In this document: positions 6,660-48,032 of the stretch, piece after piece
Position numbering within the stretch: the first letter of the stretch is position 1
Layout: every line of letters begins with the position of its first letter
Assembly: GCA_951406725.2 (NCBI GenBank)
Contig: OX597818.1
Coordinates: forward strand, 64,852,001 to 64,916,000
Source: Octopus vulgaris
Lineage: Eukaryota
Direction of reading: 5' to 3'
Length of the DNA stretch: 64,000 nucleotides
Made by a program: the position numbers and the translations under genes
Notes under the pieces: generated by a model
Told to the model about the DNA's origin: nothing
Seen by the model: only the letters and a program-made list of their open reading frames with translations
Database searches by the model: none

Positions 6660-6721
<62 letters not shown>

Positions 6722-6724
<3 letters not shown>

Positions 6725-6923
6725 ATAATAATAAAGGGTAAAATTAATTAATTAAGTAATAATCTGTGTCTACGTGAATAATTTTGAGTTTATGCTGTCC
6801 GGGAGTTTCTTCTTATAGTAGAATAAATAACTAAGTTCTTTGGCTGCTATGTCTAAAGTTCGGTATGTGGTGAAGTTAATTTTTTTGCTGAATCCTATTT
6901 ATAATTATATTCATAATTATAAA

Positions 6924-6930
<7 letters not shown>
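6722..6930 (+). mobile_element. Short diverged relative of the 585-bp pLTR unit with an inverted 5' piece, between (TA)n tracts
   Basis: 6722-6760 matches 40735-40775; 6815-6897 matches 41380-41460. Confidence 0.6.
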
Positions 6931-10239: not shown

Positions 10240-10930
10240 GGCTATACTCCACCCTTTCTAGAACATCCTGTCAGCACACAAAGGCACTGTATACTATAAT
10301 TCACTATGATATTAACCGTTTTCGTTTAGACGCTGTGCAATTAACTTTAAAAAAAGAATACATTTCATCCCCACCCCCCATGTAGTTCTTGAATCATAGT
10401 AGCTACATGTCTTTCTTTTTGTGTCCCTTCAACCATAAATCGCTACCGCTTTAAATTACTTCAAACATTCCACTGCTATTTATAACGAATTCAATGGCAT
10501 GTAAGTTTACTTCCATCTAATTGCAACCCTAAATTCAATTCTCATCCGACTGAGCCTTTACTATGGTCTTGACTTCGAATTCACAACCCAATTGTTCCAA
10601 ATTCCTGCAACGACATTCGACGTTGTTTATTCTACCGAAACCTCGATGCTGCAACACCTACGAATATTAATAATTCGACTGCACTCGCCTTGTTGAAGAA
10701 CCCGTGAACCTGATTGTATATGTTGTAAAGATAACTCCAAAGTTTCACACGCACCAAGAAAAATATTATTTACTACATTAAATTCTGATTTTGTGCCATA
10801 TTTTATAATGGAGAAACCAGTCAGCGCTTAGCAGACCGTTTTATGGAACATTATTAATAGAAGCACGAAATATGGCCAGGTCATTTCGACATAAATATCG
10901 TGATTTGAATTCTTCTCTTACATACATTCC
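10240..10930 (+). pseudogene. Highly decayed PLE GIY-YIG endonuclease relic
   Basis: About 10744-10855 translates to FTRTKKNIIYYIKF*FCAIFYNGETSQRLADRFMEH, matching FTCTSSNIIYC..YIGQTGRRLADRFAEH in the 39-kb element. Confidence 0.7.
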
Positions 10931-32620: not shown

Positions 32621-32718
32621 GTATTTCCTGCATGAATGTGACACGCACACATATATATATATATATATGTATATACCTATATACCTATATACATATACAT
32701 AGATATATATGTATGTAT

Positions 32719-32758
<40 letters not shown>

Positions 32759-32829
32759 CGTTTATATATGTGTCTATATCGTGTCTTATATACGTTTATA
32801 TATGTGTCTATATGTGTCTTATATATGTG

Positions 32830-33175
32830 TCTAAAATCGTACATCGGAATGACGTCAAACAGCTTTAAGACTCGTTGGTACGCCCACACACATTCGTTCC
32901 GGCGACCTGACAAATCCAACCAAACTACCCTCGCCGCCCACAGCTGGTACCTTAAAAGGAACTCCATCCCCTTCAAGATCAAGTGGAGACTACTACAGAG
33001 GGCGCGTTCGTACACAGGAGGCCATACCTGCTGTGACCTTTGCATTTCTGAGAGCCTGGAGATCTTGTTCGCCAAAGGCCCTCCCCTCAACAAGATCTCG
33101 GAGCACTCCCCAAATTGCATGCATAAGATTTATGCATACTACAAAAACTACAGATCCACCCGGCAACCCGATTGA
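32830..33175 (+). pseudogene. GIY-YIG endonuclease C-terminal part of a 5'-truncated PLE
   Basis: KSYIGMTSNSFKTRWYAH...CDLCISE...LNKISE..CMH; frame intact; starts abruptly after a microsatellite-like tract. Confidence 0.85.
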
Positions 33176-38131: not shown

Positions 38132-38189
<58 letters not shown>

Positions 38190-38286
38190 CGGGAAGCTTT
38201 ATGAAAATAGACAAAAAACGAAGGCAGGTGGAAAACAAACAAACAATTGTATTAGTATGGCGCTCAGGAAATATAAATAAAACAAG

Positions 38287-38324
38287 TCTTTAACGTTTCG
38301 AGCCTACGCACTTCAACAGAAAGA
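38287..38324 (-). ncRNA. Variant minimal hammerhead motif (CUGUUGA core)
   Basis: tcttt-CTGTTGA-a-gtgc-gtag-gctc-GAAA-cgtt-aaaga. Confidence 0.55.
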
Positions 38325-38714
38325 TACACAGAGAGAAAAAAAAAAACACAGAAAGAAGGAGAGAAAAAAAATGCGTGCAGTAACTAACGTATCAACATGG
38401 CGATCTGATTTCGGCCAGAGGTCAAAGATCAAACATGAGACGCGAGAGCAAAATAAGGGGAGATAATAGGGTTGATAATAAGGTTGAATGACCCTAGGAT
38501 AGGTCCGGACAGGCGTATGTATGGGGTTGGTGTATGTATTAGTATGTATTAGTATGTATTAGTACGTATTAGTATGTATAAGTGTGTGTGTGTGTATGAG
38601 AGAGTATAAGTGCGTATGAGGGGTCTGGACGTGTGTATGTATAGGGTTGGTGTATGTATTAGTATGTATTAGTATGTATTAGTACGTATTAGTATGTATT
38701 AGTTGGTGAATGTA

Positions 38715-39942
38715 TTAGTATGGCACATCATATATGATGTGATGTGTAAAGTCGTGTGGTGTAGTGAGGAGAAGAGGTGGAGAGGAGAAGAGGGGAAGAA
38801 GGGGAGGGGGAGACGAGGGGGAGGAGAAGGGGGGAAGAGGAGAGGAGGGGGAGAGAGGAGGGGGAGAAGGAGGGGGAGGAGGAGGGGGAGGAAAGAGGGG
38901 GAGAGAGAAGGGGAGTGAGGGAGCAGAGGGAAGAGGGAAGGAGAGAGGGAGAAAGAGGGAAGAAGGGAAGGGGAGTAGGGGTGAAAGGATGAAGGACTGA
39001 AGAAGTAGGGGTCGGGGGGGAAGGATAGGTGAGGAGGGGGAGAGGGGGTTAGATGAGGAGGGGGGAGAGTTGAGACCAAATGGCGTATAAGAGCGAAGAG
39101 AGAAGATTAATTCCTGTTCACGGCGCAAACGGGAATCCGGATGGCCTCTGTGTAAGGACAAACCGAACACAGATAGGTGTTGCAAGGAGTGACCGGTGGA
39201 GCGGAAATGGCGTGAGACCGGTGTGTCGTTCGCAAGGTGGATGTCACGAAGGTGTTCCGCGAACCGGTCAGCCAAGCGGCGCCCCGTTTGTCCGATGTAC
39301 AAGGAATTGCAGAGAGAGCAAGAGACGCAATAGATAATATTGCTGGAGGTGCAGGTGAAGGAGTGGATGATGGGATAGGGTCGATGGTGGGTGCTAGTGA
39401 GGCGGGTGGTGTTGGAGAGGTAAGGGCAAGTGCGGCAACGTGGGCGGGAGCAGGGGAACGAGCCGGGTTGGGAGGTAGGGTCAGGGAAGGAGCTATGGAC
39501 CAAAAGGTCTCGAAGGTTGTGGGCTCGTTTGAAAGAGGGGAGGGGTCGGTTAGGGAAGAGGTGTGAAGTGGACGGGTCGGACTGGAGATGACAGAAAGCT
39601 CGAAGAATGGTGCGTTGGAGACGTAGGGTCGTGGGGTGGTAAGTGAGGGGAAAAGGGAGGCGGGAGACTACAGGGCGGGTTCGGGGAGAGAGAGCAGATA
39701 CACGGTCCACGGACCGTGCTCTGGAAAGGGCGGTGTGGATAGTGGTGAGGGGGTATCCACGTAGGGTGAAGTGGTGAGCCATACGTTGAGACTGAGTCTC
39801 AAAGTCATGGTCGTCACTACAGAGCCTACATAGACGGAGGAATTGGGAATAGGGGATGGAAAGCTTGGTGTGTTCTGGGTGGGAGGAAGAGAAGTTGAGG
39901 TATGAGTGTGAGTCTGTGTGTTTGTAGTGAATGGAGGTGGTA

Positions 39943-39944
<2 letters not shown>
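38715..39944 (-). pseudogene. PLE ORF C-terminus: RT thumb/linker, Cys-rich linker, GIY-YIG endonuclease
   Basis: YKHTDSHSYL..SSHP..KLSIPYSQFLR..RGYP; CSRPRCRTC; NIIYCVSC..C..YIGQTGRRLADRFAEH; REQELI..GLN; no stops; the ORF's nominal N-terminus is microsatellite. Confidence 0.92.
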
Positions 39945-40017
<73 letters not shown>

Positions 40018-40193
40018 CATGTATGTATGTATGTATGCTGGATATAGCAGTCAAAACTTGACTCTAAAACCACATCAAAAATTCATACAGAACCAGGAGA
40101 GTAGAAAAAGATGCACAAAAACTAGCAAAAATTATTGGATAATTCCAGATCCCCGAATATACACAAAATACTACATAAATACAAATATACATA

Positions 40194-40250
<57 letters not shown>

Positions 40251-40441
40251 TAAGTAATTAAGGGTTTAGCAACGAATTGCCTCACCAACACACCGAATTT
40301 AGAAATAGCAGTCAAAGAGATATAGCTATTCCTTCTACTAAAAGGGGGATCTCAGTAAAAACACAGCACTTGAAAGGCAAACACAGACAGGTAAGAAAGA
40401 AAGAATGAAATGACGGCAATCTATCATGCAATTTTAAGTTA

Positions 40442-40534
40442 CCTACGGACGTACGTTTCGAGATCAAGTTTTAGGATAGCATAAGAATTAGAAAATTCTA
40501 CTTTACCCAAAACTTCTTCTCTCATCGGCGCAGG
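40442..40534 (-). ncRNA. Type I hammerhead motif in the inverted copy
   Basis: Same motif as 41190-41278; stem II extension aagttttggg/cctaaaactt. Confidence 0.75.
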
Positions 40535-41189
40535 ATACCACAATTATGAATAATTGTATATTAAATTTTGAGATACTAGAATGCATCATCTCAACTCAGT
40601 GTCAGAGCGAGCCAAAGCATGACCAGTACCACGAAATTCAAAGTTTGAATGAAAGTTTGTGTCACCAGCCCCCTTCCACCCGCGTGTAGCCAAGACAAAA
40701 TGCTGCGGTCATTTACTGGGATAACATATGTTTATCAGTAATAATAAAGGGTGAAATTAATTAATTAGGGATAATTATCAATTACAGGAATTATCAATTA
40801 TAGGAATAGCTATATCTCTTTGACTGCTATTTCTAAATTCGGTGTGTTGGTGAGGCAATTCGTTGCTAAACCCTTAATTACTTAGTATTACTTAAATTTT
40901 CCTCGAATGGGGTTTTTACATGCCGAAATCTACTTGGTGTAATTGATAATTATCCCTAATTAATTAATTTCACCCTTTATTATTACTGATAACCATATGT
41001 TATCCCAGTAAATGACCGCAGCATTTTGTCTTGGCTACACGCGGGTGGAAGGGGGCTGGTGACACAAACTTTCATTCAAACTTTGAATTTCGTGGTACTG
41101 GTCATGCTTTGGCTCGCTCTGACACTGAGTTGAGATGATGCATTCTAGTATCTCAAAATTTAATATACAATTATTCATAATTGTGGTAT

Positions 41190-41278
41190 CCTGCGCCGAT
41201 GAGAGAAGTTTGGGTAAAGTAGAATTTTCTAATTCTTATGCTATCCTAAAACTTGATCTCGAAACGTACGTCCGTAGG
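41190..41278 (+). ncRNA. Type I hammerhead motif, CCGAUGA core, long stem II
   Basis: cctgcg-CCGATGA-gaga...tctc-GAAA-cgtacg-TC-cgtagg; predicted cut after 41272. Confidence 0.75.
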
Positions 41279-42019
41279 TAACTTAAAATTGCATGATAGA
41301 TTGCCGTCATTTCATTCTTTCTTTCTTACCTGTCTGTGTTTGCCTTTCAAGTGCTGTGTTTTTACTGAGATCCCCCTTTTAGTAGAAGGAATAGCTATAT
41401 CTCTTTGACTGCTATTTCTAAATTCGGTGTGTTGGTGAGGCAATTCGTTGCTAAACCCTTAATTACTTAGTATTACTTAAATTTTCCTCGAATGGGGCTT
41501 TTACATGCCGAAATCTACTTGGTGTAATTGATAATTATCCCTAATTAATTAATTTCACCCTTTATTATTACTGATAACCATATGTTATCCCAGTAAATGA
41601 CCGCAGCATTTTGTCTTGGCTACACGCGGGTGGAAGGGGGCTGGTGACACAAACTTTCATTCAAACTTTGAATTTCGTGGTACTGGTCATGATTTGGCTC
41701 GCTCTGACACTGAGTTGAAATTTAATATACAATTATTCATATTTCTAAATTCGGTATATATATATATATATATACACAACATATGAATACTTACATATAC
41801 GCACGTATACATACATATATAAGCAAGTATGCACACGACTAGTTCAATTGCCCGCCTAGACCCCTCGTGTGATACGGTCAAAATATCACCGCAGTGATTA
41901 TAATGACAAAGTAAATATATACAGTTATATAAATAACGATCTTGTCCTTATTTATATAAATTTATATATATCATATCGTATATATATATATATTCCCTCA
42001 CACACATATTTTCTGTAAA

Positions 42020-42210
42020 ACCACATTTGAGTCGTTGGCGATTTTCTTCGCCCGTCTTCCTTTTCCATTGGACTTTCTTCTGTTTCTGAAGAAGAGCTTT
42101 GCTCGAAACTTAAAGCTACCTTTCTTTCCTTCCCTGGGCGATTGCTAATACTTTACATCCTCAAGTTGTTGCATTTTTAGTTTGTTCTCGTCTTTTTTGT
42201 GGGGTGGATT

Positions 42211-42213
<3 letters not shown>
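42020..42213 (+). mobile_element. PLE 3' end with minimal hammerhead (42082-42116), ending at (TA)n
   Basis: gttt-CTGAAGA-a-gagc-ttt-gctc-GAAA-ctta-aagc; similar to 1147-1345. Confidence 0.65.
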
Positions 42214-46776: not shown

Positions 46777-46847
46777 TGCATCGGCCGGGAAACGAACCCG
46801 GGCCGCCCGTGTGGCAGGCGAGCATTCTTCCACTGAACCACCGATGC
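46777..46847 (-). tRNA. tRNA-Gly-GCC: tRNA-Gly(GCC), variant or pseudogene
   Basis: GCATCGGTGGTTCAGTGGAAGAATGCTCGCCTGCCACACGGGCGGCCCGGGTTCGTTTCCCGGCCGATGCA; perfect acceptor stem; three departures from the usual invertebrate sequence; T5 run 13 nt downstream. Confidence 0.9.
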
Positions 46848-47138
46848 AGATATGTTAATGTATGAGTGTATGTGTGGGGGGTTTTCTCTGTGTGTGTCCC
46901 CCAACAGCGCTTGTCCAATCGGAATTGGCTACTTGACGTCACCAGGATTCAGTAGTTCAGTAAACCAAAAGTTTGATTAGTTACCAAGCTTCAATAAATA
47001 AGTAATCGAATTTGGTTCGTTGAACTAAAATTCTTCAAGGCAGTGCTCCAGCATGACCGCAGTGTAATGCGCGAAAGAAAACACAAAATGCATTTATTCC
47101 TTTAATTAAATGTAAAACAGTGTTGGTTGGTCATATTG

Positions 47139-48032
47139 TACGAAATCTGATGAATGTGTATCAGGACTGTTACCATAGTAACGAAGCTAAAGAACGCATC
47201 TTAAGCCACTTGCAACAAATTGACAATGAACTCTGCTGCGCATGTGCGTTTACTTTTAACGTCCCAGTTTACTTTCGCTGTTTACATCAGTGCTTGGAAG
47301 GGAGGTGTGTAGCGTGTGATTGTTGCATTGACCGTGACAGAGAAAGTTGTCATGGTGATACCGACAGAGTGGCCTACACAATGTTGCAGAAAGTATTTGG
47401 AGAAAAGTGCATGAGCCGCACACGAGTGTACCAGTGGTTCGGACGTTTCCAGGATGGCCGAAAATTGTCGATATGGACGAATGTTCTGGGAGACCCGCAA
47501 CCAGCAGGACTGAGGAAAACATTGCAGACGTGCCTTGCAGCTCTGAGAGGAAATCTTCGAATCACCATCCGTGAGTTATCAGAAGCTGTGGAAATTCATT
47601 GCGGTTCAGTTTAGTCCATTATCGCTGAAGATTTGGATATGAAACAGGTCTCTTTCAAGTTTGTGCTAAAACAGCTTTCAACAAACCAAACTCGGGTTTC
47701 AGGAGCACAAGATCTCCTCGGTTATGTCAAGAACGATGACAATTTATTTGAAAATTTTACGTACACCACTGAGCAGGTATCGTCAAGCTGTTGTCAAAAT
47801 TTGATGCAGATTCTCTGCTCAACTTCCTCTCTCATTATCAATGCGACGATCACACACTACACACTTTCCTTCCAAGCACTGCTGGAAAGAGCGGAAGTGA
47901 GCTAGTACGCCAATATATAGTGCGCATGCACAACAATGTTTAAGCTCAGTTTGTGCCAAGCAGCTTCATTCTGTGTGCTTTAGCTTCGTTACTACGGCAA
48001 CATACCTAATACTTATTGATCAGATTACCTAT
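47139..48032 (+). mobile_element. Internally deleted mariner with long (about 200 bp) imperfect TIRs
   Basis: tagtaacgaagctaaag / ctttagcttcgttacta and cagtgcttggaagg / ccttccaagcactg; transposase remnant MLQKVFGEKCMSRTRVYQWFGRFQDGR...RITIRELSE with frameshifts. Confidence 0.9.

Follow-up and report, generated by a model that had tools for sequence, protein, structure and literature searches.

Metazoan non-LTR retrozymes have been proposed to be non-autonomous derivatives of Penelope-like elements (PLEs) (PMC7229834), a case argued again in a recent preprint (Li, Clavereau and Pollet 2026, bioRxiv 10.64898/2026.07.22.740005; hereafter Li 2026). In the accessible text of these two sources, such retrozymes are ORF-free, low-GC, head-to-tail repeats that carry a type I hammerhead ribozyme and a monomer predicted to be self-paired, and PLEs are proposed as both their origin and their means of mobilisation. 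PLE insertions have hallmarks of their own, namely a layout that is head-to-head inverted and partially tandem, an optional tail and a bias for (TA)n (PMC8557442, PMC3846280), and the Chlamys/Naiad group is described as favouring microsatellites (PMC8557442). In vitro, PAc, the only PLE examined in this way, starts reverse transcription internally at two sites, cleaves and extends both target strands, and uses uncleaved RNA as its main substrate (PMC11167929). The hammerheads of PLEs combine a small, palindromic helix III with a large helix II, and a dimeric mode of action through the palindrome has been put forward for them (PMC4209133). Two questions stand open in this work: whether Penelope-like proteins move animal retrozymes, and whether the template is a circle.

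Here we describe a repeat family, represented by a 585-bp unit in a 64-kb stretch of DNA (the window), that combines retrozyme anatomy (a closed, ORF-free unit with a structured monomer) with the insertion footprints of PLEs. The family probably belongs to the known non-autonomous, hammerhead-bearing, PLE-derived kind. Our preferred reading, to which we assign a probability of roughly 55%, is that an ORF-free family descended from a gene-less PLE end-repeat and that a PLE protein copied an uncleaved RNA of more than one unit into (TA)n. The kind itself is already published, and the gain is a good test system rather than a new class. Three points set the family apart: most of its ribozyme cores are U4C, the unit is closed even between subfamilies 15% apart, and its insertions bear PLE footprints. 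Our literature search, with Repbase and Dfam outside its scope, found no such family described in cephalopods.

The repeat was inserted recently into a TA microsatellite (Table 1). Its layout bears out the preliminary description, which had reported a 585-bp repeat, inverted once and then about 1.6 times in tandem within (TA)n, although the inverted arm amounts to 0.93 of a unit and not a whole one. The direct arm comprises 1.6 tandem units with a period of exactly 585, and arm-to-arm BLAST identity is 98.5-100%. Among the arms we count three substitutions (U112, U192 and U306) and indels that include 4 nt in stem II of the hammerhead and 23 nt in the second unit; the inverted arm departs from the full unit by one substitution and by a stem II that is 4 nt longer. 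Both outer ends are RNA-sense 3′ ends lying in (TA)n, so the arms meet head-to-head. The RNA-sense 3′ end of the inverted arm, U87, meets the left microsatellite with a TA microhomology, and the (TA)n flanks mask any target-site duplication. On the other side, the second unit ends at U378, 11 nt before the hammerhead, and the jump from there into the terminal piece (U27-42) omits 233 nt that contain it. The short re-copied pieces noted earlier at the junctions (40773-40805 and 41740-41755) were found as described when the sequence was re-examined, and the head-to-head junction has the pattern of back-and-forth copying of short pieces. Template jumps fit these junctions, as may microhomology-mediated repair.

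Table 1. Features of the 585-bp repeat locus and of its neighbourhood. Positions are those of the 64-kb window; U numbers count along the full unit (U = 40802-41386, U1 = 40802).
Feature	Position	Strand	Details
Old relic of the unit family	6720..6925	.	(TA)n, inverted U190-144, direct ~U532-95, (TA)n
5′-truncated Neptune/Nematis-type PLE	38189..39944	-	open RT-end/GIY-YIG frame, CX4CxxC linker; (TA)n bounds
(TA)n target, left	40197..40249	.	53 nt
Inverted arm, U137-585 + U1-87	40247..40786	-	BLAST/alignment; 0.93 unit
Type I minimal hammerhead, longer stem II	40442..40534	-	descriptor and fold; predicted cut after 40448
Head-to-head junction	40773..40805	.	inverted-arm end, U2-6, 12 nt of inverted arm again, one T, U1
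Full unit, 585 bp, 37% GC	40802..41386	+	sense strand predicted strongly self-paired
Type I minimal hammerhead	41190..41278	+	descriptor and fold; predicted cut after 41272
Possible spliceosomal intron, 105 nt	41278..41382	+	directly behind hammerhead; suggestive only
Second unit, partial: U1-331, 23-nt deletion, U355-378	41387..41741	+	
Terminal 16-nt piece U27-42	41740..41755	+	joined via shared TA
(TA)n target, right	41755..41774	.	20 nt
Hammerhead-bearing piece, CUGAAGA core at 42086	41995-42213	+	(TA)n about 100 nt later

The resemblance to the pLTRs of Penelope/Poseidon and Neptune elements is close. The locus shares with them a minimal hammerhead with a palindromic helix III, a partial tandem with an adjacent, head-to-head, 5′-truncated inverted copy, alternative internal 3′ ends and an AT/(TA)n target, and like them it may have an intron near the hammerhead; the spacing of the ends in the family, 45 and about 103 nt, is longer than the usual PLE tail of 30-40 nt. 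Unlike the PLE pLTRs presented in the accessible parts of PMC4209133, PMC11167929, PMC3846280 and PMC8557442, the unit has no RT or GIY-YIG ORF, and the sequence behind the tail returns to the hammerhead within about 200-300 nt throughout the family. In agreement with the earlier claim that the unit lacks an ORF, ATG-started frames in the doubled unit reach 48 aa at most, and a tblastn search of 36 PLE proteins against the locus returned no match at E ≤ 1e-3 and two chance-level matches at E of about 5. The RT plus GIY-YIG ORF that marks an autonomous Penelope-like element is not found in the unit. The putative intron is bounded by the only AG/GTAA donor and the only pyrimidine-tract acceptor on the sense strand of the unit, and its spliced joint is absent from the contigs of the four public runs introduced below. 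Searches of the unit with simple patterns found no Pol III A or B boxes and no TATA box.

For the hammerheads, which the preliminary description had placed on each strand as type I ribozymes with U4 changed to C, a long stem II and a palindromic stem III, the descriptor and the predicted fold are in agreement. The parts are a 6-bp stem I, a CCGAUGA core (U4C), the long stem II, GAAA and a stem III of 2-3 bp with the palindrome ACGUACGU, so that the unit shares the small palindromic helix III and large helix II of the PLE type (PMC4209133). The descriptor matched four times in the window, two of the matches being the unit's own, and three times altogether in 20 Markov-simulated 64-kb sequences, and no Rfam hammerhead family matched the unit at the gathering score or at E ≤ 10. 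Core position 4 is U in 27% of the depth in run X1 and in 38% in X15, with none in X2 or X5. C4 is thus the commoner core base and a trait of the family, not decay in the window copy. Family variants change G-U to A-U and C-G to U-G in stem I and G-C to G-U in stem II, which keeps the pairing of both stems, and N7 varies. The same core substitution is natural in a viroid, where a replicon tolerates it even though it lowers hammerhead activity considerably in vitro (PMC3088659); in this genomic repeat of an animal, unlike in the viroid, C4 is the more frequent allele, and copies with the canonical U4 persist beside it. PLE hammerheads are reported to cleave poorly, dimers included (PMC4209133), and eight of nine Xenopus hammerhead dimers showed no cleavage (Li 2026). 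Judged by its U4C core and short stem III, the ribozyme of the unit looks weak. C4 cores may already have been reported by Lunse et al. The natural pair of U4 and C4 alleles could offer a built-in control for the role of cleavage in the spread of the family.

Parts of the stretch were found in 20 of 24 listed runs, which come from nine studies and carry two organism labels; none of them is recorded as RNA, and X2 and X5 are RNA by guess only. We aligned the contigs of four public runs (X1, X2, X5 and X15, with 1,942, 82, 37 and 1,202 aligned contigs, respectively) to 40745-41390 at 85% likeness. Our analysis concerns the rows listed, beyond which lie a further 143 loose ends, 43 variant rows and 3,275 contig pieces. 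The unit belongs to an abundant repeat family that is present in two organisms. X15 has one contig at a depth of 13,919, with the rarest pieces at 7-35, which suggests a copy number in the hundreds as a rough estimate, contig depth not being copy number. Among the loose ends listed, (TA)n follows behind U79 (X5), U87 (X2) and U190 (12 contigs in X1) in other copies. The recurring 3′ ends in (TA)n are U42, U79-87 and U190, with U42 and U87 represented at the locus. A drop in depth upstream of the hammerhead was considered as a sign of 5′ ends at the cleavage site, but it does not lend itself to this reading, stem II being variable and the 85% threshold clipping relatives. As a separate observation, an X5 loose end before 40817 extends for 239 unaligned nt, the last 30 of which are unit-like, which points to a subfamily below 85% identity. 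The variants of the four runs show no asymmetry of the A-to-I editing kind (A/G versus C/T of 20:16, 17:19, 26:25 and 20:19), and exact-pattern scans of metagenome, prokaryote genome and viral contig collections found 0 loci each.

These contigs also bear on whether the locus is instead stacked debris of 5′-truncated pLTRs from an ORF-bearing PLE, with 585 bp merely the local truncation length. The region is indeed a nest of PLE ends, and in X15 one contig (461 nt, depth 34.9) parts from the unit upstream of U251, with 326 letters of unseen sequence beyond that could represent an ORF. The 32 contig pieces listed, however, bridge 510 of the 522 cut points tested with at least 31 nt on each side, and the 12 unbridged ones all fall within stem II. 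The joint from U585 to U1 is present in X1, X2 and X5, and X15 has it with a few variant letters in between. Five contigs of 85-99% identity bridge U190 and one of 92% bridges U87, some of the bridging contigs being relatives at 85-93% from diverged subfamilies, and one 85% contig runs unbroken from U97 into the hammerhead. Three contigs (85, 89 and 99% alike) add up to the depth of 68 in X5 over U142-251 and two to that of 270.9 in X2 over U208-251, and every one of them crosses U190. In both runs, the entire depth over U208-251 continues across U190 to the tail region, and immediately upstream of the ribozyme region the depth leads in full back to the unit and not to an ORF. An identical junction is also found twice within the locus itself. 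The unit closes on itself at the level of the family, across subfamilies 15% apart, and the family is a long-lived non-autonomous one, not a single truncated pLTR; we regard the debris explanation as unlikely. The arrangement that the preliminary description had named as fatal to its own proposal, a unit always sitting at the end of a full PLE ORF, did not materialise in the contigs listed, where near-identical copies and subfamilies at about 85% alike close on themselves.

Within the locus, all three arms have G at U198, an allele with zero depth in all four runs, and the arms that cover U156 and U341 have rare alleles in common there too. The arms are therefore derived from one recently multiplied source monomer and not from random family members that happened to stack, and the four runs, lacking the U198 G, probably come from other individuals. 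Separate templates for the arms, considered on account of stem II length, were rejected, since the X5 depth is all of the longer form (36.2 + 16.4 of 52.5); the short form may be private. The inversion junction is missing from the contigs of X1, X2, X5 and X15, and the arms differ by three indels against three substitutions, a ratio typical of long-read error, both of which would suit an error of assembly at the locus or the rearrangement of a satellite at the level of DNA. Yet the inversion is asymmetric (U137 versus U1) with unrelated flanks, its left end matches a (TA)n end typical of the family, both organisms do carry the family, and the layout recurs in an old relic elsewhere in the window, whose BLAST-matched cores are 81-87% identical to the unit. 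We consider such an origin very improbable, and the asymmetry of the inversion rules out a fold-back read chimera.

The circular monomer is predicted to fold at −155.3 kcal/mol, compared with −120.9 ± 5.9 kcal/mol for shuffled sequences (z −5.8; none of 40 shuffles equal), with 66% of its bases paired and stems I and II formed. Without the ribozyme, the unit still folds at z −4.3 in the sense direction, versus +0.2 in the antisense; a neighbouring stretch that contains a further hammerhead fragment is likewise well folded (z −3.7). Variants of the family were mapped onto the fold predicted for the window copy. Among the 40 listed, 17 fall on unpaired bases, 13 keep a pair and 10 break one, the last figure against a null mean of 14.5 (P 0.046), and none is a two-sided compensatory change. 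Six of the eight G>A variants listed convert G-U to A-U (P 0.004), and seven of the ten C>T variants listed are unpaired (P 0.02). The support that this variation lends to the predicted fold appears real but modest, and a fold of this kind falls short of demonstrating a circle.

How such a unit came to lie in (TA)n can be outlined from these features. Under the reading preferred here, a source array of two or more units would be transcribed, and its weak ribozyme would leave the RNA mostly uncut. A GIY-YIG/RT protein would nick both strands of the (TA)n, and each nick would prime cDNA at an internal start site through 1-3 nt of TA pairing. The two cDNAs would then run toward the RNA 5′ end through the ribozyme, where short back-and-forth copying would join them head-to-head. 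What results would be a dead end. Each strand has a single ribozyme, and a transcript of 40247-41473 is predicted to fold into a nearly perfect RNA hairpin of about 540 bp in which one hammerhead pairs with the other. On this folding model, the locus releases no monomer. The hairpin RNA, should it be made, is a possible source of small RNA against the entire repeat family.

A cut linear monomer cannot have been the sole template, because both arms cross the cleavage site and one of them exceeds a unit. Beyond that, an uncleaved multi-unit transcript, homologous template switching and a circle can all yield identical DNA. The same family and helper could have used a 585-nt circular RNA, formed by dimeric cleavage and host ligation, around which the RT rolls, a route already proposed in PMC7229834 and PMC4209133. 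Arms that read through the cleavage site, a direct arm longer than one unit and a private allele common to the arms are what a circle would leave; the monomer is predicted to be self-paired with stems I and II intact, as in metazoan retrozyme circles, and the palindrome gives a predicted duplex of −11.2 kcal/mol between two copies. Formation of the circle would nevertheless depend on a U4C ribozyme, much less active in vitro (PMC3088659), and on the dimers that cut poorly in PLE hammerheads and stayed uncut in eight of nine Xenopus cases, while PAc is reported to have copied uncleaved RNA (PMC11167929). We hold the circular template to be possible but doubtful. Equally tentative is a fuller version, a rolling-circle RT footprint in which a U4C-damped, dimer-only hammerhead would keep the circle closed and a PLE protein would prime both TA strands. 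If true, it would tie the circles of animal retrozymes directly to PLE enzymes, a connection hitherto only proposed. Uncleaved multi-unit RNA accounts for the locus at least as well as a circle, and we favour it because the ribozyme looks weak and ribozymes of the PLE type often fail to cleave.

Twin priming also gives a head-to-head layout. The mover could accordingly have been a microsatellite-targeting LINE (for example Dong-R4 or RTE) instead of a PLE, with twin priming as the source of the inversion. To judge from its AT- and microsatellite-rich sequence, the host is probably an octopus-type cephalopod; should it be an octopus, Dong-R4 and RTE elements with many recently active copies are described there (PMC13282606). 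The unit is without detected PLE homology. The multiple internal starts, the hammerhead of PLE type and the intron signals resembling those of pLTRs are, however, features of PLEs, and the ends have neither poly(A) nor a LINE-type tail; we consider a LINE as the mover quite unlikely.

Relative to the closest described systems, the locus works in the manner of a non-LTR retrozyme, its insertion follows the PLE pattern, and we class it neither as an active retrozyme nor as an autonomous PLE. On the retrozyme side, each unit has a type I hammerhead, is non-coding and below 50% GC, and is arranged head-to-tail at the level of the family, with a monomer predicted to be self-paired; its 585 bp falls inside the range of 51-972 bp given for retrozymes in Li 2026. 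Unlike the retrozymes of the cited accounts, the unit is longer than the 170-400 nt of the experimentally known circles and is known here from DNA, it has a PLE-type minimal ribozyme with U4C in place of the canonical form, the locus has one ribozyme per strand, and dispersed copies end PLE-style in (TA)n. The preliminary description had gone further and proposed an active non-autonomous ribozyme retroelement. The non-autonomous, hammerhead-bearing PLE/retrozyme kind stands, and the word "active" has to be dropped, since Li 2026 reserves it for two consecutive ribozymes, whereas the locus has one hammerhead per strand and its transcript is predicted to pair the two; circles are hypothetical. 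Non-autonomous Chlamys elements, such as MRC1 (PMC8557442), are similar in being PLE derivatives with pLTRs that are often multicopy and head-to-tail. Unlike the unit family, they are green algal and have partners known by shared 3′ ends, and most Chlamys elements lack canonical hammerheads as far as that account describes them.

Neither of the PLE pieces that flank the unit appears, by its sequence, to be a helper candidate: the truncated PLE at 38189-39944 and the piece at 41995-42213 share no homology with the unit. Comparison of the unit with the 3′ end of the neighbouring PLE gave a score of 31, which 17 of 100 shuffles equalled or exceeded, and none of seven flanking stretch/strand pairs scored above shuffles. 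Both pieces sit at (TA)n sites like that of the unit. The truncated PLE is about 50% identical to RT-bearing proteins and has a minimal hammerhead-like motif of its own at 38319 (core CUGUUGA); its 3′ end has a 76% copy at 926-1083. The piece at 41995-42213, which is unrelated to the unit, is probably the 3′ end of a further PLE. Between two microsatellites, the 160 bp at 40037-40197 have a 12-nt word in common with U18-29, at a level not above shuffles. Farther away, an open frame at 32642-33175 (+) matches no Pfam family; we take it to resemble the C-terminal endonuclease of a different PLE clade. A short remnant of the C-terminal part of PLE proteins lies at 10729-10851 (+), with nine hits from 36 queries and a best E of 7e-07. 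Finally, a tRNA-like match (54.4 bits) at 46777-46847 (-) lies beside what is presumably a fragment of a mariner-type transposase at 47057-47614.
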